DNA of 63,709 nucleotides, the filler included, from Licmophora abbreviata (lineage: Eukaryota): the NCBI GenBank assembly GCA_900291995.1. It is 13 parts of 13 records of this genome, joined end to end, with 100 filler letters (N's around TTAATTAATTAA, not from the genome) between each part and the next. Parts side by side here need not be neighbours in the genome. Positions count along the whole stretch, not along the records: positions 33,978 to 43,383 come from OLMU01005093.1; positions 43,484 to 46,756 come from OLMU01005094.1; positions 46,857 to 49,968 come from OLMU01005095.1; 10 more parts are not named here. One strand, 5' to 3'. Each line of letters begins with the position of its first letter. Positions within the stretch are counted from its first letter, which is position 1. Below the pieces are notes generated by a model. The model made no database searches. It saw only the letters and a list, made by a program, of their open reading frames with translations, and had not been told where the DNA came from. Of this stretch, positions 33,978 through 49,304 are shown in pieces. Made by a program: the position numbers and the translations under genes.

Positions 33978-35094
33978 TGTCGTCTGCTTCCTTGTCTTTG
34001 TGACTGCTTGCCCCGCCTCGGTAATGCATCGTCTTGTAGACGTTGTTGTTCCTCTTCCAGTTTACGACTTTGTCGCAACAGAAGTTGCATCCCAGGTATA
34101 CTGGCCGATGCTCCCACATTGGTAAAGCTCATCAAAATGTAGGCTGCGTAGGGAATCGCATTTCGACTCGAACGACGACGACGACGAGTGTTACTGACAC
34201 CCTTGTCATTTTCCTCCACAGTATCCAACGTCGCCAAGACGGTGAGTAATCTGGCTCCCAAGGAGTGTCCCATACCCACAACAGGTATACTACTACAATC
34301 TTGGTACTCATCCATGACAACATCCTCAAGTGCCCTTGAAAGTTTTGTTGCAGACTCCGCGACAATGCAACATGCTGGAGTGGATTGTTGTTGTTGTTGT
34401 TGGATGACAATGGTGTAATGACTGGAATGGACGTTGCGACAATGACACTGCTGGTATTCAAAGACACGCTCTCTAACAATCGACGATACCACAATTTGGG
34501 AGTACTCCCAAAGAAGGTGCCACCGACAAAGTGTATGATGGAGCGGGGAGTCGTTACATGGGGCGGGGGGAATAAGACCCAAGTTGAAGCATCTGGACAC
34601 AGTTCCCATTCGAGCAGTGATGATGATGATGTTGTGTCGTCGTCGTCGTTGTTGTTGTCAAAATGGACCTTGTAGAAACCTCCTTGACGTTCGTATGGAT
34701 CGCTATCCTTGACGTTCGTTGGTCGTTGTTGGTAGTATCGTTCTTCATCATCAGGTTGGTCTTTCCAAAAGGATGAAGACTCTTCCTTTCTACCATTCTT
34801 GTTCACGTAGTAATCATCATCATCATCATTTTCATTTTCATTGGCGTAGTAGTAGTCATCATCGTCATTACGACGACGACGACGGGCAGCATACAAAGAA
34901 GAAGAAGAGCGTGATGGCATGATCCGTCTGTAGCAGTGTTGTTGCAATTGTTTCGTTGCCAACAACATGGTCCATGCTGCCTTTGTGGTTGGGACTTTTC
35001 CAAAGAGAAGTACAATGCTACTCAGCAAGAGCCATGGAGAAGTGGTAGTAGTGCTGCACAATTGTGTAGCATGCCGTCGTTTCATCATCCTCAT
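33978..35094 (-). CDS. DUF1350-like alpha/beta hydrolase, probably plastid-targeted. 1-bp frameshift near 34335. 3' end lost in the gap.
   Basis: IIHFVGGTFFGSTPKLWYRRLLE, nucleophile elbow GMGHSLGARL and ILMSFTN. Signal peptide ends TKA-AW. Confidence 0.7.
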
Positions 35095-35482
35095 GGTGAT
35101 GGTGGTGGAAATTGTGGTGTTATAGATTGTATTTTGGATTTTTTTGATTTTTTTCATTTTTTCGTACTTGGTACCTGTTATGATAGCGACGGCCAGACAG
35201 ACAGGTGTGACAGACACTCCTCTATTCAATGTTCAACACGGAAGCTGAAAGTACGTCAGGATGTCTTTCGGACAAAATAGATTTAACTCATATTTTTTAA
35301 TAATTAAATATGAAACGTGCTCGAAGTGATGTGTTTGCAAATGGCCACCTGGGATCAACGCAAACCACAAATTCAACATGAGAGGCTTCTAAAATCACTT
35401 GTACAATAGTCCACCTTGAAGACTTCTGAAAATACTAGCTCGCTCCCGGAGTGTATACTACAATACTTCACTCACACGAACG

Positions 35483-36499
35483 ATGGCTTCCCTGCAGGAA
35501 CAACAGCAAGAGCGAGGACAAGTCGATGGCTATCAGGCCGATGAGGACGTAGGCGGCAGCACCGACTGCGGCGATGCGAACACTGCTAGTACTTGTAGTA
35601 CTGAGACTGCAGTTGCTACGAGTACAACAAAACGAGATGACCGCCAAATTGACAACAACAAATCAACACTTCATACGAAAGAGACACACTTTTACAGTCG
35701 TCTGCCTCATCGCAGAAGAAAAAGGCGAAGAACTCTCACAAAGACTACAGACGAAACAAAGCCGTCCTCTCATTTTAGCCGTACTATCAACAACAACAAC
35801 AACAACAAGACACTACTTCATCCGCAGCAGCATTCCCGTCACGATACTTCCCTCCTTGACCTTTCCAACTTGCTTTTTACCTACTGGGATGCCTTGTCCA
35901 GAGTCTCTCGTCCTGGAGACTTTGGAACGAACCACACAGCGATGACACGACACGATGCTACTTTACAAGAAGAGTGCATACATCATAGCATCCTACCTCC
36001 CAACAAGCAGCTACTACTGCAATCCTCGTCTACTAGTACGATTCGAATGAAGTCTTCAAATCCTCACACCATGGAGCATGCCTTGTCAATTTCGAAATAC
36101 GCCAAGCTTGTTCTTCAAGCACATGCTCCCTTTTCCATGGTACATGCCAATGCAGCCTATCATGCAAGGTGGAAACCAAACTTGAGGGGTAACGACGTGG
36201 ATGTATCCAAAACATCCATGACGAGCCTTGCACAGGTCATTGCAAACTACTTTAGACATGTGGCGTCCTGCAACACTCCAACAACTCACCAGAACGACAC
36301 TACGTCTACTACTACCACTACTAGTAGTGTCATGCTGACTGTATTTCCAGTGTGGGGTGCAGAGACGCAAAGGGGTATACCTGTGGTGACTCACTACTTG
36401 GTCACGGAAGAAGAAGAAGCAGTGAGCAATGATGATGACGACGACGACACAATCCACAACGACTGTTTCACTCTTTCTGCAACGCAGGCAGTGGGATAA
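35483..36499 (+). CDS. Hypothetical protein with C-terminal PAS-like domain (paralog C), intronless
   Basis: MEHALSISKYAKLVLQAHAPFSMVHANAAY...VFPV..VTHYLV. RRRKRRR tract. Ends AVG*. Confidence 0.65.
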   Translation: MASLQEQQQERGQVDGYQADEDVGGSTDCGDANTASTCSTETAVATSTTKRDDRQIDNNKSTLHTKETHFYSRLPHRRRKRRRTLTKTTDETKPSSHFSRTINNNNNNKTLLHPQQHSRHDTSLLDLSNLLFTYWDALSRVSRPGDFGTNHTAMTRHDATLQEECIHHSILPPNKQLLLQSSSTSTIRMKSSNPHTMEHALSISKYAKLVLQAHAPFSMVHANAAYHARWKPNLRGNDVDVSKTSMTSLAQVIANYFRHVASCNTPTTHQNDTTSTTTTTSSVMLTVFPVWGAETQRGIPVVTHYLVTEEEEAVSNDDDDDDTIHNDCFTLSATQAVG

Positions 36500-36694
36500 A
36501 CGATTGTGTTTACTGGTACCGGTACCACCATATATAATACTACGTACCTGTACTTCTATTGGAGCGACCCACTCGTCCGCAACCATGATGAGGCTTCTAG
36601 AATCAATCTACCGGTAGAGCACGCTCTCGTGTCGTAGATTAGGTGATCCTCTACTACCATGACTTTTCCAATATTGACTACTGCCACTACTAGT

Positions 36695-39600
36695 CTACTT
36701 GACGAGCACGTCAAAGGCCCCGGTTCCATGCCGAATCGGTCGTCCCATGACAATGTTACCGCTGGGACTCATTAGCGACTCCTTCCGAGCATGATTGGCT
36801 GCTTCCGTCATGAAGGTGGCCGTTGTCTCAAAGCTCATTTGCAAAAAGGGGGAACCCACATCGGCCATGCCTCCACGATTCATAGCTTTAAAGTCACCTT
36901 CAAACGTCATGTAGTCGGCAATGAGCGACAGATGACGCGGGTCGACGGAAATGCCGTAGGCGCCAAAGACGCCTCGAATCTGATCCACAATGGTTCTGCG
37001 AGCCGCTTCGACTCCGTACGAACAACACACGGCCCAAATGTCGTTCGAGGTCAGGCGGTTGTGATCGACCACGCCGTCCAGCTTCCACAGTTCCTCAAAA
37101 TTTACGCCTGCTGTCTGCAGGCACCGGTTGTTGGCTTCGTCCTCATTGTTGATAAAGGCTTGTTGAATCTTGGGCCGTGAACGTACAAGTGTAGATGAGG
37201 CGGCGCGTTCGACCAGCCCGACCATGAGGAGAGGACGGACGGATGGATCAACCTTGAGAGGGCGGAGGATGAAGGAGTTGCTGGCCCTGTCAATTTTGAG
37301 GGTATTGGAGCCAAAGGAGGGTGCTGTCGTAGCAGTATTGTCATTTTCATTGCCGACATTCGATGAGGGTGGTGGATTGCCCTTTGTCCCTTCGTCTTCG
37401 TCGGACATGTCTGACTCGTGCGCCGTTTCTTCGTCTTCAACGTCCATAGGTCCGTAAGACGTCATTTCTTCTCGGTTCCCAAACCTGGAGGCATTTACAC
37501 CATCTTCTTCTCCCATGGCGTCGTCGTCGTCTTCTTCTCCGCCTTTATTGTCGTCATCATCGTCATCGTCAAGCTCATCGCGTTCACTGGCAGCGGGAGT
37601 TATTTCGCTCTCGACAAAGTGGGATGCCTCTCCACCCTGCACAGTGCCCCCTTCATCGTCTTGATTCGTGGCCGATCGTTTGATTTCTTTCTTCATGATT
37701 TCTGCCAAGGACGGAATGAAGAATTCGGTCGCGACACTTGCAATGGCTTCCAACGTCAGTCCAAACGCCTCCTTCATACGTTCGGAAGGATGCATCTTCA
37801 ATGTAATGTGGTATGCTCGCTGCCACGTGCCAGTTGCGTCCTGTTCCAGCGCCTCTCGAACTTGGACGCCACCATGACTAGAAATGAGTTCCATGAGGGT
37901 GAGTTTGGTAAAAGAACGAGTGAGCCGGACAGCCTCTTTGTCGGAAATGGAATCCAAGAGAGGAACCGACATGGTAGGAGTCTTAAGTTCTTTGGATGCT
38001 GTCATGATGATTTCGCGGAGACGAGGAATGCCCAATGTCACGTTTGCACCTGATCCAGCGAGATGGAAGGTATTGAGGGTCATTTGTGTTGACGGTTCTC
38101 CCACAGACTGGGCGGCAATGCTACCGACGGCTTCTCCCGGAGCACAGAGCGATGATGCATATTTGGCGGCAACCAGCGACCCAAAGTCTTCCGATGACAA
38201 ACCCGAGGCTTTCAGGATTGCTCGAAGCTTGTTGTCAGTCTTCAATGCAGAAGATGCAGCACCGGCCACGCGTTCTGAGACACATGCGCCACTAACACCG
38301 ATGCGATGACTACCGGCAGGGCCTTTTGCGCCGGACAGCAAAGGGTCAGGCAAGGCAGATCTGATGAGGATGCATGTACTGGAAATGGCGTCAGTCTTCC
38401 GCGCGCCGCATGGACCAAGGTCGACTTCGACTGGCACATGCGAGACTGTGTGACCATCCTGTAGATATCTCAATTGATAACTGCCATTATTGTGGCATTT
38501 GGCAACGATAGCACTGAACCAGCCTTTGCACAGAGCTCCACGTGTCCATGCAGCTCCAACTCGCAGTCTCCTCGCTTCGACATAGCTCCCAACCTCAAAC
38601 CTGCCTTGGACGGTAGTACTTTGTCGCTGGACATCTCGTGCGGCGATGTCAATCGACGAGTCAGGTAGTGGCACATTACACCGATTCAGAGCCTCTCGAT
38701 TGCTGGCCATGTACTCAAACGAACGAGACGAACAATCCAAGTAAGTAGCTTTTGTTGGATCCAAGCCGTCTTCTCCATAGAGGAACTGCACTACGCCTCC
38801 GTCGCTGTTTCGGACCGTCGAATCATAACAGACTTTCAACTCCTCCAAGTGTTTCACCAAGCATCTCTGCAAGTATCCAGAGCGGGATGTCTTCACTGCA
38901 GTATCGACAAGACCCTCGCGACCGGCCATACAGTGAAAGTAGTACTCTTGAGGACGAATGCCCGTCAGAAATCTGTCCATAATAAAGCCGTCTGCTCGGG
39001 GATTTGGATCGTAAGGAGCAAACGAAGGAAGAGTTCTACCTGAACTCAATCGCGGGACACGTCGTCCCTCCAAAGCCTGCTGTCCAAGCGCACACGACAC
39101 TTGTGATTGATTGACAGTTGAACCTTTGGCACCGGTGGTCACCATTAAGCCAAAAGTCTGTATCAAGAAAGAAAACATATAATGTGAGATGGAGAATGGG
39201 CTGTCGTCATCGAATGAGACGATCCATCGTGACGTACATTTGCAGGGAAGGGAACAGCGAGTCCGTTCGGAAGACAGGCTTTGATGATTTCAGATGCCAA
39301 AGGATTAAGCTGAGATTGCATGTACCCATCAAGTGCGGCAAATTTCTCCTTGCCTTCGCTTCCAGACAAAAGCTGGCCAATTTTCGCTGATGCAGCTGCA
39401 GACTCAACAGGTTTGAGAGGTTTGTCGGCGCCCTCCTTATCCTTGACAGGCTCGATCTGAACCTTTCCGCCCTCGGAATCAGCCCATGCCTTGGCCGCTC
39501 TAGAGCCAACGCTGTATGCGCGATTCACTAGCTTCCTGCGGGCGGCATCAGCTTCTTTGGTGAGAATAAGATCCTCCATTCGACATGAGTGGCCAGAATA

Positions 39601-42594
39601 ATACTGAAGGTAGGCTGTGAAAAGCCTCCCAAGAGAGTTCAAAAGAAGACCGGCTCGCCGAGCTCCGTAGGCCTCGTACACGGCATGCACCAGCGAAAAC
39701 TCAGTTGATCCAAACGCGGCCTTATCCAAAACTCCACGAAGAAGTTCTCCATCGCGAATGATAACAAGGTGCTCCTTTTGCGAGGCGCCGAACCCATGTT
39801 CAGGAGTCTTCGCCTTTCGTTCCACAGATATTCCTGGAAACTCGTGCTTTCGGGATCCAACGTCTTCCTGGTCGTTCCCTTTGCGTAAGTGGTGCAATAG
39901 CGTACTGAGAACCTGCTTTCCAGTCCAAAGCTCCTTGGCTTCTCCACGGCTGGAGGGAGGAGCTCGATATCCGCATCGCTGCGTATGAGTTCCAATCCAG
40001 GGAGACTCGTAAGAGACGCGAAGACAAGCTGTTGGTACTCCCACCGTTCCAAGAATGTATCTTTTCCAGTCATTTTCACCCCAGCATCGACATGGTCCTG
40101 GATTAGACCACGCAGTGGAGAACCGTCCGTAGGAACAATGTACTGCAGATCCGTTGCCGCGATAAATTTCGACTCGGCCGAGGCGATGTCATTCTGGGGA
40201 AAGTGACAATTCATTTCGTCTCCATCAAAATCAGCATTGTATGTGTTGCAGTCTGACGGCATCGCGATGCAGTGTCAGAGAATACATGCTACAACACACT
40301 CGGGGCGAAGAGCAAAGCACAAAGCGGGAATACTCACTTGCGTAGTGCATACGAATGGTCTTCTGTGTCGGATCGTGCAACATTCGCACAGAGTGAGCCA
40401 TGATCCCAGGCTTGTGCAACGTAGGCTGGAGACGGCGGGAAGGCACGCAACATGCATTAGTGCAATGAATAGGCCAGAATGCATAAAATGGTCGAATAGC
40501 GGCGGGATCCTCTGTACGACCAAGACCATCAACCTCAAGCAGCCGGTCGGCATATTTCTACGCCTAACCAAGCCACAGAGCAAGGTGACACTCTTCACCG
40601 ATAATTGGTCATAATCCATCAAATTCAAGTTCAGAGTGGTGCATGACTGGATATCTCTTCCTCGGAACGCGCTTCTTGTGCTGGCGACGCCTCAAACACA
40701 AAAGCAACTCACCTGACGATTGACTAACATCATGTCGCCATTTCTCAACTGGCGACCAACGACAACGGGAGGACCGCCTTTCTTGATAGATGAGACTAAT
40801 CGAGCCGCAACTGACTCGCGTCGCTTGTCATCCATTCGGCTCAAATCGATGCGTCTACCATCTGGAAAACGCACCCAAGATGCCCCGGGGTGATTGCTGG
40901 CACCACGCTCTACTAAACGTCGCATTTCTACGAAATTGAGGTCCGTCACCGGGGTTGGATAGGTTAATGTCTTGGCAAAGTGAAGTGGAATGCCGATTTC
41001 GTTCGTTCCAACATACGGGTCTGGTGAAATCACAGATCGGCAGGCAAAATCGACTCGTTTGCCCATCATGTGTCTGCAGCAGATGATCAAAATGGGTCAG
41101 GCCGGTCCACCGGGCGCACTTCACACATTGACATGAAAGAGCAGTCACAAAAAGTCTTACTTGCGAAAGATCCCTTCCTTCTTTTCCAGGATTTGTCGAA
41201 TACCAGGATTGACATTGCCCGAGGCGGTGGCGCTGGGGTCTTTCGAGCTGTCCATGAAACAGTTGACGGTCGTCTGCAATTCAATCCAAGCCGTGTATGC
41301 GTTGGTTTCTGAGTCCACCAAGAGCGATCGGATGCGCTCATTGAGAGTCAAAAGTTTGTTCAGATAAACGTTTTGAGAGTGCTCCACCTTCAAGGTCCCC
41401 AGCATCATGAGGGGGCGAAACCGTGATGGAGGTACAGGAATGGCACGTAGAAAGAACCGTCGAAAGCCCTCAGGTCCACCACCCCAGAATGCGGCACAAA
41501 GAAGAGGCTGTTTCTCCCACGTTAGTTTCACTTGAGCCTGAATTTCAAAAGACGTCATGTAACGATCCTTGGAAGGTGTATCGTCTGGCTTGTCCTGCTC
41601 TTCGTCGTCCTCGTCTTCTTCGTCTGAATCCATGTTTGGCTCGGTCCGTTGGTGGCCAGTCAGGGAATCATCTGAATCATACCCAGTCCTCTTTTTCTCC
41701 TCATATTCCAATGCGGGTGCGATCACGATACCCTCAGATGCATTGATTCTTGCCTGCTTCAACGACAGCACCGACTGAAAAACTTTGTTATTGGAATCTT
41801 GTCGAATCTTTGGCGAAAATGCACCACAATGTTCGCACTTCTTGCGCTGCAAACATGAGGAGAGCAGAAGCTGCTGTACTGTGCGCCGTGTGCGACGTTC
41901 CAGTGACGACGAGTCCGAGTGAGTTGAACCTCTCGATACCGGTCGTTCATGGACGCCTTGGAGAAATTCTTGTATGGCAGTCTGGACAGCCGCCGCCACG
42001 GACGTTTCTCCACGATTCTCTCGCGCCTGTCGAGACACATGCCGAATGTTAGCTTCTAATTCCAGTGCCTCCTGTAGTCTTCCGCTATCCAACAAGGCAA
42101 ACTGCGTCTTCAAGGTCTCCAGCTCCTGTTTGGGTGCACGCAATTCGTGACAATGCAAACACTTGGCTCGTAGAAGCTTAATCATGCTTCCGAACAACAG
42201 GGGGTGATAGACAGGTACACACAGCTCCAGATGCCCCGAGTGACCTGGGCAGTTCACGTAACTACAAGCGCATGTCTCGCAGATGCCTCCCGACGAGCTG
42301 TCGATCGGCCCCATTTTGCCGTCGTACAAACCGCCAGGCAATGGTGTCCCCAAGTCACGGTCCAGAGCTAGCGGGGACGTGATTTCCACCACCGATCGGG
42401 ACCGGACATCCTCATCTGTATAAAAACTGCTCGTGTAAGAGGGAATTCTGGCGTCAGAAGGATGCTCTGGAGCGATTCATATCAAAGGATACTAATCGAG
42501 TTTCGAACATGAAGCAAATAGAATATCAACAGAAAACTCACCCAAATATGACACTCTGCACCTGCCGTCTCACGATTGTATTATTCGGGTCCAT
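36695..42594 (-). CDS. RPA1: DNA-directed RNA polymerase I largest subunit (about 6 exons, 1-bp frameshift near 39937)
   Basis: [36 protein letters not shown], catalytic [47 protein letters not shown] and SFETT. Pol I-type acidic insert, no CTD. Confidence 0.96.
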
Positions 42595-42977
42595 ATCGTT
42601 TTGTCTTGCTTGTCGGTTGAGCTCAAACTGTTGTGGCACAGGAGAAGTCGCTCGTCAAGTTCAGAGATCTGCCGTCATTTCACTTGCGTCGAATTGTGGA
42701 AGATTTGGAGGGAACTTTTTTCGAAATTTCGTGGTGGCGCGCGAAGGAGCGCGCGGTCAGCGCGTCGTCAATCGAAAACGAGCGAGGGCCAGGCGCTGTT
42801 ACAACAAGTTCAAGTGCATGATTGCACGCTGATCGAGAGACTAACTACGCATTCCATGGCACTAGTACGTGTAGATGACACATTGCCAGGTAGCAGCCTC
42901 TAATCTGACTTCTCTGGTATTCTATAGCAACTCCGCAGCTATCATAGCGTGTATTTCTGTACCTTTTCCAAGATGTG

Positions 42978-45886
42978 CTATCCGATTGCAGTAACTGTCT
43001 CAGTTCTATCTGACGATTCCGCCGCATCTTCCTGCATGTCGTCTGCAGCTTGGTGTTCTGGTGCAACTAGAGCGTCCACTCTGCCGAAATCCTTGGGGAC
43101 AAAAGACTGTCTAGTTTCGTCTTGCTTCTCTGCGCTCTCGGGGACAAAGAGCTCAAGCTGGATCACATAATGCGTAATGTGGCTGGGAAAGTGCCGATGC
43201 TGAGCTTCAACAAAGTCCTTATCGTCATGATGATGCTTTGGTCGTTTGGATGCATGGTGATGTCCTGCGTTGTTGTCTACAGGATAATCCTCCTTATCCC
43301 CAACGTCCGTAACAATGCCGGCTTCATCAGGTGCCACCGATGAAACTACAGGCGAAATACAAACGCGGCACTGAATAGTGTGCNNNNNNNNNNNNNNNNN
43401 NNNNNNNNNNNNNNNNNNNNNNNNNNNTTAATTAATTAANNNNNNNNNNNNNNNNNNNNNNNNNNNNNNNNNNNNNNNNNNNNATACGAACGCGGCACTG
43501 AATAGTGTGCAGTGGGTAGCTTGGAGCTTCACTGCTGAGGCTGCTTTCACGACTTTCCTGCTTCTTGGACCCGACGTCAAGACTCGAGGAGTTTTCCAGT
43601 GATTTTGCGGCCACATTAACAACGTGGTAATCGCCAAACCCACTCCCTACTATAAGGCGTTCGAGAGACATGTCGTCAGACCCCGGCCAGCCGCCACCCG
43701 TACCGGTAGCTGCTGGAGGGGCGACAGAAGACGCATCAAAGAGCATCTTCGAAGGACGTACAGGCGGGGCCGCGTGTTGTTGTTCAAGAGGTGTCCTCTG
43801 CTCTTCTTTTGGTGGACCTGTAATAAAACTGGACGGCGGTAAGAGCGACACCGTCCCAGTGACAGGCTGGCCGACCACTGCGTGAGAGTCCACACCCGTA
43901 AGGCCAGTGTAGGCTGCATTGGCGTGAACCACCAGCTGAAAACGCGCGAGCAAACTTGTGAGGGCACGACTCTTAGATGGAAGCGACGAATCAACAGAGG
44001 TACTTACATAAGGCGGAAACGCTTGGATGATCATTCTAAATGAATCGAGGTAAACACGCACTGTTAGCATACTTTGAACAGCAGCTGTGGCACGACAGAC
44101 CGAAAAATACCATAGAGACAAACTCACCTTGCATTCTTGGAAAATGAAAGAACCTCGTCAAGTGCACACGCCTGTCCGGGTCGAAGGATAATATCTGAAT
44201 AGCCCTCACTACTGTCCGATGACTCCAGCTGCCGTTGGACTTGCTCCTCGTATTCGCGCCTCATGTTCATTCGCTTCCGTTTCTTGTGCAAAAGCTTCTT
44301 CTCGCGCACAGAGTCTACTTCATTAGGAAGCAGCTTCTGAGGCAGGGTTGGAGCAGGTCGCACATTACGTTGAGGATGAACACTCGAACGGGCCAAGGCA
44401 CTTGGTGGCTTCATCACATCGCCGTCTGCAATCATTTCCACTGCTTGTTGTACAGTCGTCTCGACACCTTTTGAGTGTCCATCCTGTACACATTTCTCTC
44501 CACTTTTCCCTTCATTTCCACTTCCTGAGCTGTTGTTATTTCCACTGTTGTGTCCACTATTCGTGCAGCTTCCCGAGTTTTCGTTCCCACTACCAGAACT
44601 GTTGTTGTTGCTTCCACTGTTTCCGCCACTTCCAGAACCAGATGTATTGGTAGTCCCCGTGTTTCCAGTGGAACTGAATCCACTCTGACTCTGACGTGCT
44701 ACATTATCAGACGACTCTGAAACAAACCGAGGCGGAGCGGGCACAGGAAACCGCTGCAGATCGGCTCGGATGTCGTCTTCCGGCTGCGGATGATGGGGCG
44801 CTTGGGGCTGAGCACTTCTTGTCGACGCAGTAGAGCGCGAGGAGTCTTCCGGAAGCGCTTCGCCACCACCCGGTCTTTCGTCTGCGACTCGCGATATGAC
44901 CTGTGCCTCACCTCGAACATCTTGCTGTTCCTCAGCATGCCCTTCGTGACTCTCGTCCTGTTCGTGTCGTCTCTTGTGTCGACGCTTCACTCGTGCTAGA
45001 ACTCTCATGGAGGAGGTATCACTTTCATCGGCAAGCGATCCCAGACTAGGCGCGGCAACCGCCCCGGATGGCTGTTGCTGACCGTCTTTTGGTCTATTGT
45101 CTGAATTGGTTGCTTGAGTTGCATCCGAGCATCCGGCAGCAGCAGCAGCATTGGAGGGTTGTTGTTGTTGAGCAGGCTCCCCAGAATAAAACTCAAAGAA
45201 AGGTCGAACAGCCTATTTATTGATTCGATTGTAACAAATGTCGTTATAAAAGTGGTGAGAGAGAAGCATGCGAGGCGCTCCAGCACACAAACATTCACGA
45301 CGCAAAGACCTACCTCCATCAATGTAAAGTAATGTTCGAACCTTGCAGGAACCTCTTCTGCAGTTTCCTGCTGAGGAAGAGAGTGCTGATCCTCGCAAAC
45401 AATGTCCGTGTTGACATAGCCGACCGTACTCAAGTCGATCCTTGGATCCATGGGATGCTGTATACGTACTCCATTCCATTGTGGCAAGGTAGCTCTGTCC
45501 TTCACGGAAGGCGGCTGCGAAAGATCAAGTCCACTCCGTCTCACCAGATCTTCTAGTATTTGCTCTTGCTGCCGTGCCTGGTGCTTTCCAGATTTGGAAT
45601 GTTCGGATCGCTTCTCATCCTCGTCCACTGCAGATGCGCGCCGTCTCGCTTTCGCTGCTTCGTGCAGAGTCAGACCGCCAATATTGAGGTGCGCCGGAGT
45701 CGTTCCTTTGTGGTTGGAGGAGGACTGTTCCGACGACGATTCGGAAGAGGACCAGTCGGCAATGTAGCCTTGTCCACTCCCACTCCCGCTTTCTCCACTG
45801 GCCAGTGGTGGACCACTGCTTTGACTGCTAGACGATTCATTCGCGCGGTCGTCTTGCTCGTCCATCGTTTTGGACTCTCCCTGCAT
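42978..45886 (-). CDS. Hypothetical Ser/Gly-rich protein with C-terminal PAS-like domain (paralog A), multi-exon, spans the overlapping linker
   Basis: ORFs 45005-45886, 44124-45008, 43432-44127 and 42978-43337 are joined by GT-AG introns and the linker overlap. Spliced ALDEVLSFSKNARMIIQAFPPY/LVVHANAAYTGLTG...ITHYVIQL. Ends TAIG*. Confidence 0.7.
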
Positions 45887-46370
45887 CCTCGTAGTGGTGG
45901 TACCCGTATACTTTCTGTCTGACAGCCAGTTCCGGAGAAGTGTCCCGTCTATTCTGTTTTCACTTCTATATCAATTGTTGATTTTGCGATGGCAATGATG
46001 ACCAATGTATCATTCATGTCTCTCTTGACACACACGTGATGTGATGTGTTGTTCTTTTTCGACTATTTCCCACGACAAATTGTGACGGGAGCAAAGTCCC
46101 ACACGCCATAAACCGTCACTGGGTGGAAACCAATTTTACGCACTTTTCTCATAAGTAGATTTGGCTGACGTGTTTTATCTCGTCCAGAAAAGGACGAATC
46201 AAAACGCATGGTTTGGATGACGCTCTTTTGAACATAAGTAGGAAGTTTCTCTGTCGGAAGGCGTAGCGGTTGCCCATAGGAGCTTGTTTTCTTCGTGTCA
46301 TCGAGACGCGCGCGCGAACTATTCTCATCAGCGAGAAAGCATCACAACAACAACAACAACAAGCACCACG

Positions 46371-47852
46371 ATGACCAATACTACGCCCAACAACCGAATC
46401 AACAGCGCCGCAAACAAAGACGAGGACGCTGCGTCCTCTTCGGGATACTCGACGGATCGAGAGGAAACGGAGGAGCCCGAAACCCGAGAATCGGATGATT
46501 CAGATCTCATTGACGCCCACGTAGTGAGACACGATAGAACAATCCGTAGTGACACGAACCAAGTACGAGAACAGTCCAAGGAAAATGCCATTGCATGCAA
46601 CAGCAGTCGCAAGAGATCCTTGGCTACGACCACTACTAGTGTTTACCCATCCTCGAGTACTACTACTAGTAGTCTCAGCGGCTCCGACAACGACTCTACC
46701 TCGGACGACTCGATCGTTTGGAAGCACAAGTATCTCACCAAGAAGCGTCGCGTCCTNNNNNNNNNNNNNNNNNNNNNNNNNNNNNNNNNNNNNNNNNNNN
46801 TTAATTAATTAANNNNNNNNNNNNNNNNNNNNNNNNNNNNNNNNNNNNNNNNNNNNCAAGAAGCGTCGCGTCCTCCAACGCGCCTCCAACCTCATGCAGC
46901 AAGACGATCTCTACGCTGCGTCCGTTGCACGACAGTCCATGACACCCATGACTGACTCGGAACTGTGGAAGGAAGCCCGAGAACTCTTGGGGGAACTCGA
47001 TGGCAACGAAAGTCGCTATCATCCAAGCAACAATAGTACGAAAAAGAGAGTGCGCATTGTGGAACCTTCACGAAAACGACTTTCAGGAAGAATTGACTTG
47101 AGCTTTGTGCAGCGCTTTAGCTCCAACGAAATGATGGACGCAGACATGAAACATTTCTTGTTTCCCACTACTCTCTACGATGACAACCACAACCAGTGGA
47201 TGCCACGAGCCTTGAGTCAGATTCAAGAGGTGCATCGAGTCTCGGACGATAGCGAGACGGAAAAGAAGACAAGAGATGCCATTTTGGCTTCTCGGAAACC
47301 CGCTCTCCACCCAACGGGTTCCACAGATCTAGACCAGGCCCTCGCTCTCACTCCCACTGCCCAGTAAGTGATTGGTGTCGTGGCTGCTGTAATTAGCACT
47401 GACGGCGATGATATGCACCCCTCTCATTTTCTCTTTTCTTATTTCCTTCTTCCATTAAAAAATATAGACTCATGGCTCAAGCAGTCCCACCCTTTGCGGT
47501 GGTGCACGCAAACCGAGCCTTCTACAATCTCTCTGGTATCGCTCCCGTGGACATTGTGGAGAAGCCCATTGAAGATGTTGTCAAACTGACTGTCGCACAA
47601 GAGAATGACAACTCGTCACTTCTTGGGGCATATCTAGAACGACCAGTGGGCAACCAAAAGCAAATGCCATGTGAGATCCGAGTCTTGTCCGTGCACGAGC
47701 CGAGTAGTGAGGAAGAATCCGCTCCCTTCACCCACGTGCTCGTGCAGATATACCCGTCTTCGTCGGTACAAGCCCCACGAGTGGATGCGAATCGAGAACT
47801 AATGGAAAGACCCGTCATGGAGGGCAGTGGGGTGCTACTGGGCATTGGTTGA
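46371..47852 (+). CDS. Hypothetical protein with C-terminal PAS-like domain (paralog B), 2 exons, spans the overlapping linker
   Basis: The linker flanks share CAAGAAGCGTCGCGTCCT. Intron 47364-47467. LDQALALTPTAQLMAQAVPPFAVVHANRAFYNLSG...FTHVLVQI. Ends GIG*. Confidence 0.7.
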
Positions 47853-48047: not shown

Positions 48048-49304
48048 TCATGCAATGCGGTGGAACTCTTTCTTGTGACGAAATGTCAGACTGATTCGAT
48101 ATCCTCGTTCCACAAGCGTATTCACCGGTGCATTAGCACACTTGTCACTCGCATATTCCGAGTCGCAGTCTTGAAGAATCGAGTGACAGTAATGGCTATA
48201 GGCGTCACCACCAAAGACCAGCAGTGAGCCAGTACCGTGGAGCAGCACTTGTAAGGCGAGGTTGCTTGGTTCGGTAGAGCCAATTTCGTGCGTGGCGAGA
48301 CGTTTGGTAAAGTCAAGTAGAACAGGAGAACCGCCCATCGAGATTGTAGCAGTGGTGTCGTCGTAGAGTGGTCCGTCCGTGTGTGGCAGTATGCCTTGAC
48401 CCGACTGATACTCGTTAATCAGTACAGAGTTCGGTGTCCGTGTTTCCGGAAAGATCCCTGATCGTACCAATCCATTTGCGATTTGTTGAAGGGGGAGGGG
48501 AAGCAGACCTAGCGAAGAATCATCATGATTGTCATCACTACTGCCAGACTCAAACAAGCACACTCGTCTTTTGCCGTACGTCATGGTTGTCCACCTGTTG
48601 AATCGCTTCTGCGGTGCATCTGTGCTAGAGTTTTCGGGAAGACGCTGCAGCCACTGCAGCAGACGCTCTTGGTGTGCTTGATTCATGCATTGAGGGATGT
48701 AATAGACATTGTCAAGCGGTGGAGCCGCATCCTTCTCGTCCGCACGCAGCGGCGCTGATAGTCTGTGACGGACGCGATCCAAGCGGGGGAAGGATGCAAT
48801 CTCGGGCCAGTCGTCCGTGTTGACACTCCGTTCGTCAGGCGCTGCGTCTGCACCACAGGTTTCTTCTTGCTTCTCCTTCTTTCCAAAGACGATACTGCTG
48901 ATCGCTTGTTCTTTGGCCTGCCGCGATCGCTCCTCTTGGCGTCGCTGTCGTGCGAGACGTTTCTCTTGTCGCAGTAGGGCTCGAAAATCAATGGCGGGAT
49001 AGTCCGACGCGTCAACAGGCTGTACAGTGGGAAAAGGTGTCGTCGCGTTGTTCGTGAGAGCCGGCTCTTTGTCGCTGTCGCTGCTGCTTGTGGTCATCCT
49101 CGTTGTTTGTGGTGGGGTCATCCCGTGTCCGTCGTCTCCACCATCTCCGTGCTTCGCCGAACGCCGATGGTCGATTTGACTTTTGACTAGCTCGAATCGA
49201 AATCCATCCCACTGGCTTTCATGGCGCGCGCGGCGGTGGCGCGAACTCATCAAGCACGGCGCACCTCGCTCCCGCCTCATCGACATGATGCCGACACGAG
49301 CCAA
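48048..49304 (-). CDS. AlkB-family 2OG-Fe(II) dioxygenase, ALKBH6-like (start uncertain)
   Basis: PNSVLINEYQSGQGILPHTDGPLY (HxD), HSI and RGYRISLTFRH. Confidence 0.85.
   Translation of the reverse strand: MARVGIMSMRRERGAPCLMSSRHRRARHESQWDGFRFELVKSQIDHRRSAKHGDGGDDGHGMTPPQTTRMTTSSSDSDKEPALTNNATTPFPTVQPVDASDYPAIDFRALLRQEKRLARQRRQEERSRQAKEQAISSIVFGKKEKQEETCGADAAPDERSVNTDDWPEIASFPRLDRVRHRLSAPLRADEKDAAPPLDNVYYIPQCMNQAHQERLLQWLQRLPENSSTDAPQKRFNRWTTMTYGKRRVCLFESGSSDDNHDDSSLGLLPLPLQQIANGLVRSGIFPETRTPNSVLINEYQSGQGILPHTDGPLYDDTTATISMGGSPVLLDFTKRLATHEIGSTEPSNLALQVLLHGTGSLLVFGGDAYSHYCHSILQDCDSEYASDKCANAPVNTLVERGYRISLTFRHKKEFHRIA

Follow-up and report, generated by a model that had tools for sequence, protein, structure and literature searches.

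Genes at the locus

The window, a stretch of 63,709 nucleotides from Licmophora abbreviata joined from 13 records of the genome (filler included), contains three genes, here termed A, B and C, two of which are arranged head-to-head:

42978..45886, minus strand: gene A, A-type, 838 aa; four exons, coding sequence of 2517 nt with a single terminal stop
45886-45314, 45212-44128, 44035-44008 and 43935-42978, minus strand: exons of A, whose GT-AG introns restore a single open frame
46371..47852, plus strand: gene B, B-type, 419 aa; two exons (46371-47363 and 47468-47852), coding sequence of 1260 nt, open frame
35483..36499, plus strand: gene C, C-type, 338 aa; single-exon open reading frame
45887..46370, no strand assigned: divergent intergenic region of 484 bp separating the A and B start codons, from the gene coordinates

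The peptides that the initial annotation of this DNA had quoted were all found within these genes at the positions it gave, and all three genes are intact. Both A and B are crossed by an assembly linker of the form N44-TTAATTAATTAA-N44, with flanking repeats of 27 nt in A and 18 nt in B. The last exon of A was read over the linker at 43384-43483, skipping the repeated 27 nt at 43357-43383, and exon 1 of B was read over the linker at 46757-46856, skipping the repeated 18 nt at 46857-46874. Once the linker and one repeat copy are removed the frame is kept in both genes, and the orthologues in L002 and L001 are uninterrupted at the corresponding points. B is also collinear with an intron-less relative in L001, with 103 identical columns out of 484. 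Four DNA sequencing runs yielded 14 read-length pieces at 99% likeness, two of which span exon-intron borders in unspliced form, as expected of DNA; no joints were found among them.

Paralogy, subfamilies and phyletic spread

Pairwise BLASTP comparisons unite the three proteins through a shared PAS-like block (E 7e-11 for A-B, 1e-7 for A-C and 2.6e-6 for B-C), and the core motif occurs in exactly three copies in the whole window. Outside this block the pairwise comparisons gave no significant match, and the N-terminal regions are of low complexity. Each gene has its closest matches in other diatoms, not in the two neighboring genes. Two-block BLASTP alignments of A with A-type proteins of Seminavis, Thalassionema, Epithemia and Ditylum score 132-188 bits; with Seminavis A reaches 186-189 bits, as against 51 bits for A with B. 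B matches its B-type relatives at E 1e-16 to 3e-23, and the nearest relatives of C (P0054, P0093 and P0047) score 47-63 bits over an alignment from aa 114 to 307, with motifs shared along the whole length. In a phylogenetic tree the A-, B- and C-type sets each lie on one side of a branch (SH-aLRT 96, 89 and 93, respectively). These sequence relationships indicate that A, B and C each represent a different old subfamily, and that all three subfamilies have their own orthologues in other diatoms. The earlier description of the genes as three paralogues with a PAS-fold C-terminal domain is thus backed by the pairwise comparisons, and also by the models, structure matches and PDB matches presented below.

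A profile of the shared block retrieved 372 clusters at E<=1e-3, and 65 at E<=1e-10, from 1.84 billion representative proteins. Domain architectures were read from a local E-INS-i alignment, as other MAFFT alignments misaligned the C-terminal halves. A word-indexed protein search with the family alignment found at least 7 proteins; the same kind of search gave no match for the whole of C, nor for exon 2 of B versus longer proteins. All members that end in glycine and carry an organism name are from diatoms (10 species); since the organism names come from 30 cluster look-ups and one listing, restriction to diatoms is indicated rather than proven. The database names of the members are 'hypothetical', 'expressed unknown protein' or the automatically assigned 'PAS domain-containing protein' (UniRef). 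The Seminavis genes bear the identifiers Sro374_g129300 and Sro1363_g266350. Literature searches returned no paper describing PAS-only proteins with these termini, and no searchable paper mentions the gene identifiers of two members from Seminavis and two from Nitzschia. The proposal of an unrecognised PAS-only family gains support from the 372 profile matches, from the lack of any other domain (see below) and from the lack of a describing paper in these searches. The proposed architecture, a GY motif followed by a PAS domain and a terminal glycine, likewise recurs across the family.

A single divergent PAS domain

The shared block corresponds to the following domains:

43155..44162, minus strand: PAS domain of A, aa 542-780, with N-cap LDEVLSF at one end and last core strand ITHYVIQL at the other, placed by alignments and profile
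47329..47750, plus strand: PAS domain of B, aa 281-386, with one intron after the N-cap; AlphaFold model, PAS/LOV matches in VIA
36071..36403, plus strand: PAS domain of C, aa 197-307; core of the model, PAS/LOV matches in VIA

Two introns and the linker interrupt the domain of A, which contains an insert of about 180 aa that is also found in L002 and in the Ditylum protein P0003. AlphaFold models were made without templates, using exon 2 only for B (pLDDT 72.9, pTM 0.61) and the full-length protein for C, whose core blocks have pLDDT 87-94 while confidence is low throughout the N-terminal half. The PAS fold predicted by the initial annotation, an antiparallel beta sheet with an N-cap and short helices at its flanks, was recovered in both models: the best 50 VIA rows of each are exclusively PAS/LOV structures, with middling Z scores of 5.5-7.0 for B and 3.6-5.0 for C. 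Foldseek with the B model found nothing at E<=1e-3, and its top rows are all LOV/PAS at E 0.4-1.4. In a search of PDB sequences with the family profile, 27 of 30 matches were LOV/PAS, the best being Brucella LOV-HK (E 3.5e-4); exon 2 of B alone found nothing in PDB sequences at E<=10. The ten best named clusters in the ESM Atlas all belong to the PAS clan. There appears to be one PAS domain per protein, as the local profile search gave one match each in B and C, and in A two partial matches that make up the split domain, and the models of B and C show one PAS core each. Taken together, the models and matches support the assignment of the C-terminal domain of the family to a single divergent PAS fold.

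This divergence is also apparent in the Pfam scores. PAS_9 matches B with 16.2 bits against a cut-off of 27 (E 0.013), the PAS-clan profiles give no match in A and C, and none of the three proteins reaches the cut-off. Among the relatives PAS-clan matches were detected in 34 of 97 at E<=0.01 and in 13 of 53 at E<=0.001; the Pfam PAS cut-off is reached by 11 of these 150, including four glycine-ending members (P0023, P0106, P0111 and P0137). Because their own scores lie below the Pfam cut-offs, A, B and C join the PAS superfamily only via their family.

The cysteine that forms the flavin adduct in LOV domains lies in an NC[RK][FIL]-type motif. This pattern is present in none of 153 family sequences, A, B and C included. 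The helical middle of the domain, which corresponds to the ligand-pocket part, is the least conserved region, and in A-type proteins its place is taken by inserts as long as about 180 aa. In agreement with the earlier statement that bHLH and bZIP domains are lacking, the 150 relatives gave no Pfam match to a bHLH, bZIP or catalytic domain (97 searched at E<=0.01 and 53 at E<=0.001). Nor did A, B and C contain any such domain or another Pfam family, and their pieces gave no HLH or bZIP family at E<=1. The only non-PAS Pfam matches in the 150 relatives are three that are weak or low-complexity (DUF3135, NeA_P2 and DUF3439), and no detectable leucine zipper follows the basic tracts described below.

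Conserved motifs upstream of the PAS domain

Close to the N-terminus each protein contains a short motif centered on Gly-Tyr:

45755..45769, minus strand: GYIAD of A, aa 40-44, in a Ser/Gly-rich acidic context; GY.AD.SS kept at >=80% in 15 A-type proteins
46443..46457, plus strand: GYSTD of B, aa 25-29; SGYx[ST]D in 7-8 of 13 B-type rows, B included
35528..35542, plus strand: GYQAD of C, aa 16-20; DGYxADxEE in 4 of 4 C-type proteins

Counting the window's own gene in each case, GYxAD is seen in 13 of 14 A-type, 4 of 4 C-type and 7-8 of 13 B-type rows. Of 64 full-length members, 24 have a GY.[AST]D motif ahead of the PAS domain, compared with 0.48 expected from shuffles; 14 further members show G[YF] variants, and the motif is absent in the remaining 26 even when variants are counted. 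These counts, together with its retention in orthologues, uphold the N-terminal GYxxD as a family signature. In many B-type proteins the motif reads D-S-G-Y-x-S/T.

Between this motif and the PAS domain lie a DLS motif and a basic tract:

45428..45442, minus strand: RIDLS of A, aa 149-153, inside an A-type block at aa 134-197; DPRIDLSTV kept at >=80% in 15 A-type proteins
47089..47103, plus strand: RIDLS of B, aa 201-205; ID.S.V kept in 20 B-type proteins
35852..35866, plus strand: LLDLS of C, aa 124-128, at a predicted helix start; SLL.LS..L..YWDA in 4 of 4 C-type proteins
44271..44285, minus strand: KKRKR of A, aa 501-505; kept at >=80% in 15 A-type proteins, with no Pfam bZIP/bHLH match there
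46740..46754, plus strand: KKRRV of B, aa 124-128; L..KR..L.RA kept in B-type proteins
35711..35731, plus strand: RRRKRRR of C, aa 77-83; RKRRR in 4 of 4 C-type proteins

The RIDLS of A is part of its second BLASTP block, which shows 53-62% identity to A-type relatives, and in the model of C a helix is predicted at residues 127-141 with low pLDDT. The KKRKR of A lies inside a conserved block, KK.L.KKRKRMNMRREYE, about 25 aa upstream of the PAS N-cap, and basic clusters precede the PAS domain in 41 of 64 full-length members. Taken alone such short motifs are not significant; however, DPRIDLSTV, the basic tracts, THY[VL] and the terminal glycine are each kept within subfamilies, and it is this conservation in orthologues that argues for their being real. 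The initial annotation had described the motifs as shared in the same order. All are indeed present in the three proteins, but their order differs, with RIDLS (aa 149) preceding KKRKR (aa 501) in A and the basic tract preceding the DLS motif in B and C. The A-type N-terminal block (aa 100-191) gave a best score of 0.85 in the ESM Atlas with no consistent family, and Pfam found no match in exon 1 of A or in the part of exon 1 of B downstream of the linker. A reading of RIDLS as the CtBP-type PxDLS motif was dropped, as A and B have Arg rather than a hydrophobic residue after the Pro/Gly.

A conserved C-terminus

All three proteins end in glycine:

42981..42992, minus strand: TAIG-stop of A; final G shared by 116 of 150 relatives, mostly preceded by V/I/C/M
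47838..47849, plus strand: LGIG-stop of B; predicted beta strand at residues 122-126 of the exon-2 model, last block pLDDT 72
36485..36496, plus strand: QAVG-stop of C; ARAVG or ARTVG ends 3 of 3 C-type relatives

Among the best 150 of the 372 matches the last residue is Gly in 116 and Ala in 13. The profile match stops at least 15 aa before the end of the protein in 136 of the matches, and 103 of these end in Gly, indicating that this feature is seen beyond the region that defined the family. In the 116 tails ending in Gly, position -2 is V/I/C/M in 109 and position -3 is T/A in 98, giving the consensus hydrophobic-x-[T/A]-[V/I/C/M]-G-COOH. The small-hydrophobic-Gly end can hence be regarded as a family signature, as had been suggested. 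That an extreme C-terminus should be kept to the last residue in over 100 clusters is unusual, and suggests that the free end is recognised. Because the tail is unstructured in the full-length model of C (pLDDT 30-37), the idea that it docks as a strand comes from one model, that of the truncated B domain.

In public gene models two B-type relatives, one of them from Fistulifera, end at the last PAS strand; such models can miss the C-terminal tail. An interpretation of the T-V-G tail as a 14-3-3 mode III site was also discarded, as Thr occupies position -3 in only 52 of 116 tails.

Functional interpretation

We regard the A/B/C family, with moderate confidence, as PAS-only interaction regulators that probably act in the nucleus, and whose C-terminal tail might serve as a docking strand or a recognition tag. 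What the sequences and models establish is the family, its signatures, its PAS fold and the age of the three subfamilies. A typical member comprises a long, disordered Ser/Asp/Asn-rich N-terminal region with a G-[Y/F]-x-[A/S/T]-D motif close to its start, a basic cluster and an [R/K]-I-D-L-S-x-V motif, followed by a single divergent PAS domain that is closest in sequence to LOV-type domains but lacks the flavin-cysteine site, an acidic linker and a near-invariant C-terminus, with no DNA-binding or catalytic domain. Regulation might proceed via protein-protein contacts of the PAS domain, and the N-terminal motifs could be docking or phosphorylation sites. Since the basic clusters are conserved, nuclear action is probable. 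The tail presumably needs a free small end. It might extend the PAS sheet by one strand, latching onto its own protein or onto a partner, or be a tag that another protein recognises.

An alternative, favored by the initial annotation, takes the family as unstable PERIOD-like clock or clock-associated repressors that would form PAS heterodimers with RITMO1/bHLH1a, bHLH1b or bZIP-PAS factors, with the GYxxD region as a phosphodegron and the glycine as a C-degron. A PAS protein without a DNA-binding domain would fit this role, as would the Ser/acidic N-terminal motifs, particularly the D-S-G-Y-x-S/T version of many B-type proteins, and the small last residue (G or A in 129 of 150); both Gly-end degrons and DSGxxS degrons exist in animals. 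However, neither the A-type GYSADCSS nor the C-type DGYxADxEE matches DSGxxS, there is one PAS domain instead of the two tandem repeats of PERIOD, and the gene identifiers of the Seminavis and Nitzschia members mentioned above occur in no searchable paper. We also know of no machinery for recognition of Gly-end degrons in diatoms. In its favor, the RITMO1 partners are described as uncharacterised (10.1101/2024.12.23.629939), and PAS/PAC-only signalling genes of T. pseudonana, which might belong to the A/B/C family, are reported as day-expressed (PMC6738920). On the whole we consider the clock-repressor role unlikely. The same applies to a more elaborate proposal, which we offer as speculation: the family might consist of diatom-specific co-regulators in which a flavin-less, LOV-derived PAS domain gates exposure of its own tail. 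Docked as an additional strand the tail would be hidden, and once released its glycine would be recognised by a partner protein or by a degradation system. In combination with the GYxAD phospho-motif this could time the abundance of bHLH-PAS/bZIP-PAS clock-factor partners, and the family would then be the missing non-DNA-binding limb of the diatom oscillator.

Other readings are harder to sustain. It is distinctly doubtful that these proteins are sensors, in which a LOV-like pocket would bind flavin, haem, a lipid or another ligand and the protein would signal light, redox state or a metabolite. In sequence and in fold the top matches are indeed LOV and flavin- or haem-binding PAS domains, and a 44-residue alignment to LOV sequences covers the N-cap and the first strands and helices, but the flavin-adduct cysteine pattern is found in 0 of 153 sequences, and the pocket-forming helical middle is poorly conserved and replaced by the long inserts in A-type proteins. 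UFM1, ATG8 and ATG12 end in x-Gly, and the near-invariant last residue with its conserved V/I/C/M neighbor could similarly mean that the glycine is covalently conjugated or processed, in the manner of ubiquitin-like modifiers, rather than used for docking. This we hold to be very improbable, given that the fold is PAS and not beta-grasp, that Ala ends 13 of 150 members and that the tail is a predicted strand in one model. Finally, the low complexity of the N-terminal regions and the lack of significant pairwise matches outside the PAS block might suggest chance motif matches, or open reading frames that are not genes. This reading is already contradicted by the 372 profile matches, the tail and GY statistics and the motifs kept in orthologues of other diatoms, transcriptome-derived proteins included; with the frames also open across GT-AG introns, its probability is practically negligible.

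Diatoms account for a large share of marine primary production, and most of their signalling and time-keeping proteins are uncharacterised. The family is large, restricted to diatoms as far as sampled, with at least three old subfamilies and sharp short motifs at both ends, and it provides candidates for PAS-PAS partners. The sharp terminal motifs and old subfamilies make the GY motif, the RIDLS block, the basic tract and the terminal glycine concrete mutational targets. RITMO1 is the only diatom time-keeping component studied in depth, and its interactors are described as uncharacterised (10.1101/2024.12.23.629939).

Comparison with known systems

Among PDB sequences, those closest to the family profile are LOV domains (phototropin LOV1/LOV2, aureochrome LOV, Brucella LOV-HK and short LOV proteins; E 3.5e-4 to 1e-2), with the match covering the N-cap, the first two strands and the helices that follow. 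LOV structures are also at or tied with the top of the matches of the B model (Z 6.9-7.0, rmsd 2.8-2.9 over 82-85 residues). Unlike LOV proteins, the A/B/C family lacks the flavin-cysteine motif and a conserved helical middle; it has no J-alpha-type helix, with an acidic linker to a conserved strand-like tail in its place, and no bZIP, kinase or F-box output domain.

The bHLH-PAS and bZIP-PAS factors of diatoms resemble the family in combining a single PAS domain with a variable N-terminal and a short C-terminal extension, as described in PMC6600994. The conserved basic tracts upstream of the PAS domain in the A/B/C family are a further likeness. In contrast to bHLH-PAS (RITMO1/bHLH1a, bHLH1b) and bZIP-PAS proteins, A, B, C and the 150 relatives show no Pfam bHLH or bZIP domain, and have terminal signatures of their own. 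Animal PERIOD is likewise a PAS protein without a DNA-binding domain, and a PERIOD PAS repeat (1wa9) is among the matches of the B model (Z 5.9). In PERIOD, however, there are two tandem PAS repeats and a kinase-binding region as against one PAS domain here, and no sequence relation extends beyond the fold. The PERIOD analogy of the initial annotation accordingly holds for the missing DNA-binding domain and fails for the number of PAS domains, the likeness being architectural only. For 47 of 150 relatives the Pfam models PF00989 (PAS), PF13426 (PAS_9) and PF08448 (PAS_4) give weak-to-threshold matches, located in the first half of the domain, whereas the termini and subfamily-specific blocks that distinguish the A/B/C family are not captured by them.

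Gene models and neighbourhood

Genes A, B and C, which the initial annotation had placed in this region as PAS-only paralogues, were found at exactly the coordinates it assigned to them, and every peptide that it quoted from their products is present. Together with the adjacent genes they are arranged as follows:

34132-35157, minus strand: gene for a DUF1350 protein (DUF1350, E 1e-7), upstream of C
35483-36499, plus strand: gene C, a single ORF coding for 338 aa
36695-42314, minus strand: multi-exon gene for the largest subunit of an RNA polymerase, putatively the Pol I subunit RPA1 named in the initial annotation, between C and A (Rpb1 domains 1, 4 and 5, with an acidic insert in domain 5)
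45886-42978, minus strand: gene A, 838 aa, with three GT-AG introns (45313-45213, 44127-44036 and 44007-43936)
46371-47852, plus strand: gene B, 419 aa, with one such intron (47364-47467)
48048-49286, minus strand: gene for a 2OG-Fe(II) oxygenase (2OG-FeII_Oxy_2, E 2.6e-12), downstream of B

A and B lie head-to-head, with 484 bp between them. Each crosses one of the assembly linkers, in which TTAATTAATTAA has 44 N on either side, and the sequence flanking the linker is repeated over 27 nt in gene A and over 18 nt in gene B. With the introns, linker and one copy of the repeat dropped, A reads as a single open frame of 838 aa and B as one of 419 aa; as the relatives are continuous at both points, we infer that the two frames run on across the linkers. 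The window is a contig chain with 12 linker sites in 5353-62060 (e.g. 43384-43483 and 46757-46856). The repeat copies in gene A are one C/T base apart, which changes Arg to Cys. Given the flank repeats of 27 and 18 nt at the two linkers read, the contig ends overlap and could represent two alleles.

Identification of the PAS domain

The three proteins are related through a PAS-like block (A-B, E 7e-11 with 37% identity over 60 aa; A-C, E 1e-7; B-C, E 2.6e-6), the core of which occurs in exactly three copies in the window. Outside this block no significant alignment was found among A, B and C, and the short motifs were therefore tested in relatives. Pfam searches recovered only a sub-threshold PAS_9 match in B (E 0.013) and no match in A and C. 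Among the relatives, PAS-clan matches were seen in 34 of 97 at E<=0.01 and in 13 of 53 at E<=0.001; 11 relatives rise above a Pfam cut-off, 4 of which have Gly as the last residue (hereafter Gly-enders). The only non-PAS matches in the relatives were to DUF3135, NeA_P2 and DUF3439, all weak or of low complexity, and no DNA-binding or catalytic domain was detected by Pfam.

An AlphaFold model of B exon 2, built from 57 relatives with no templates, has a pLDDT of 72.9 and a pTM of 0.61, and in an exhaustive structural comparison its best 50 rows are all PAS or LOV domains (Z 5.5-7.0; rmsd 2.6-6.1 over 72-100 residues); Foldseek also places LOV and PAS domains on top, without significance. The full-length model of C has a confident core, with blocks at pLDDT 87-94, and this core (residues 195-318) matches only PAS/LOV chains among the best 50 listed (Z 3.6-5.0). 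Its N-terminal 175 residues are modeled with low confidence, consistent with disorder. These PAS/LOV-only matches of the B and C models, together with the lack of DNA-binding or catalytic domains in Pfam searches, support the PAS-only nature proposed for the family. A search of PDB sequences with the family profile A5 gave Brucella LOV-HK as the best match (E 3.5e-4), with LOV/PAS domains in 27 of 30 rows; the alignment with LOV domains spans the N-cap, i.e. the start of the PAS domain, the first two strands and the helices after them. LOV domains carry a cysteine motif at which the flavin adduct forms, and a pattern for this motif matched 0/153 sequences of the family. From the N-cap to the protein end, B and C are compact (146-149 aa), and A, which contains an insert, spans 304 aa; 116 Gly-enders divide into 57 with a compact and 59 with a long domain.

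Relatives and their distribution

Word-indexed protein searches with C and with B returned no matches. Scanning metagenome contigs for the core pattern recovered two loci: L001, a 1.3-kb contig without introns that codes for a 386-aa B-type protein, and L002, which carries the 3' portion of an A-type gene and terminates a 50-kb contig. Eight rows drawn from the window and these two loci, cut to the N-cap plus the first half of the PAS domain, made up a profile (A4) that was then compared with 1.84 billion representative proteins and gave 372 matches at E<=1e-3, 65 of them at E<=1e-10. In the 30 clusters looked up and one listing, all Gly-ending members with names are from diatoms, belonging to Ditylum, Proboscia, Thalassionema, Licmophora, Grammatophora, Seminavis, Cylindrotheca, Nitzschia and Epithemia; a haptophyte match (P0070) is a canonical protein with two PAS domains and lacks the end typical of the family. 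The members are labeled in their sources as "hypothetical protein", "expressed unknown protein" or, automatically, "PAS domain-containing protein". Two B-type relatives, P0192 from the diatom Fistulifera solaris and P0076, end at the last PAS strand (...IQVY and ...IQIY), without the acidic linker and Gly tail; the likely cause is an overlooked intron or a truncated gene model, so that public annotations may hide the C-terminal signature of the family.

The conserved C-terminal end

Among the best 150 of the 372 profile matches, the last residue is Gly in 116 and Ala in 13; the overall Gly content of these proteins is 6.3%. The tail is no by-product of the search, since 103 of the 136 proteins in which the profile match ends at least 15 residues before the protein end still terminate in Gly. 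The same end in transcriptome-derived members indicates that it is the true protein end. The 116 Gly-enders are also constrained further upstream, with V, I, C or M at position -2 (109/116), T or A at position -3 (98/116) and V, L, I or F at position -5 (98/116). The last residues of the B model (122-126) are assigned as a β strand, in a final block of pLDDT 72 and in a construct without the N-cap, whereas the tail of the C model is unstructured (pLDDT 30-37); docking of the tail on the PAS sheet is accordingly a hypothesis with mixed support from the models.

The initial observation is confirmed, and its interpretation is partly supported, as regards an unrecognised PAS-only family: the relatives share a PAS domain as well as conserved termini peculiar to the family, and the literature searched contained no description of PAS-only proteins with such termini.

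N-terminal and subfamily-specific motifs

Of 64 full-length Gly-enders, 24 have the motif GY.[AST]D ahead of the PAS domain, mostly inside the first 100 residues; the number expected by shuffling is 0.48. Variants such as GGYSGD, SGYG[ST]E and SEG[FY]TSFF are present in 14 of the remaining 40. By subfamily, and with the window gene counted, an N-terminal GY motif is found in 13/14 A-type, 4/4 C-type and 7-8/13 B-type rows. In P0009, P0010, P0040, P0041 and P0043 a nearly identical N-terminal SSEG[FY]TSFFTTT stands in place of GYxAD, which suggests that the constant feature of the motif is an aromatic residue after Gly. Further motifs are conserved within the A-type (DPRIDLSTV, S.RVLARVKR and KK.L.KKRKRMNMRREYE), B-type (L..KR..L.RA, ID.S.V and WM..AL) and C-type proteins (RKRRR and SLL.LS..L..YWDA), and basic clusters are found in 41/64 full-length members. 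The motifs had been described as ordered; they are indeed present and conserved within subfamilies, but their order differs in A, where RIDLS lies ahead of the main basic tract. One block conserved in A-type proteins is located as follows:

44229-44300, minus strand: block KK.L.KKRKRMNMRREYEE (A aa 496-519), at least 80% conserved in 15 proteins, some 25 aa N-terminal to the PAS N-cap

The conservation of this block is far beyond the needs of a simple nuclear localisation signal; Pfam found neither a bZIP nor a bHLH domain in it, and it could form a helix that touches nucleic acid or a partner.

Divergence of the paralogues

With A-type proteins from Seminavis, Thalassionema, Epithemia and the centric diatom Ditylum, A scores 132-189 bits, in two or three blocks, among them the insert and the N-terminal block specific to A, as against 51 bits with B and 40 bits with C; B and C likewise have relatives of their own in BLASTP searches. 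A tree was built over 90 columns from 107 of the 153 sequences, after rows lacking the first eight profile positions or shorter than 70 residues had been left out. In it a branch separates each of the A-type, B-type and C-type sets from the other sequences (SH-aLRT 96, 89 and 93, respectively), with the window genes nearest their own sets. As the sets were BLAST-defined, the columns few and the B branch long, the tree is supporting evidence only. Seminavis and Cylindrotheca have at least one more subfamily, with the end VGVMG, which has no member in the window. To it belong P0065 (Seminavis), P0067 (Cylindrotheca), P0037, P0108 and P0148, which have a V-G-V-M-G or R-V-M-G end and match A, B and C on the PAS block only. 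It is unlikely that three members of such old divergence lie within 12.4 kb by chance.

Functional implications and comparison with known PAS proteins

The proteins of this diatom family contain one PAS-fold domain of LOV-like sequence, with no flavin-cysteine site and no other domain, preceded by a disordered N-terminal region, in which short motifs are conserved, and followed by a conserved free C-terminal end. They probably act via protein contacts of the PAS domain, and probably in the nucleus, judging from the basic clusters in 41 of 64 members. The N-terminal motifs could serve as docking or phosphorylation sites, and the tail could either dock as a strand on the PAS sheet or act as a tag whose small, free end is recognised. 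The initial annotation had envisaged clock-like, degron-bearing repressors resembling PERIOD, a speculative model with which these features are compatible.

Within the excerpts available of PMC6600994, 10.1101/2024.12.23.629939, 10.1101/2020.11.23.393678 and PMC4827209, the PAS factors described are of the bHLH-PAS and bZIP-PAS types only. The corresponding excerpt of PMC6738920 reports PAS/PAC-only "signalling" genes of Thalassiosira pseudonana that are day-expressed at all iron levels, two of which have adjacent identifiers (Thaps3_262720 and Thaps3_262721). These two genes may belong to the same family and show the same head-to-head pairing as A and B.
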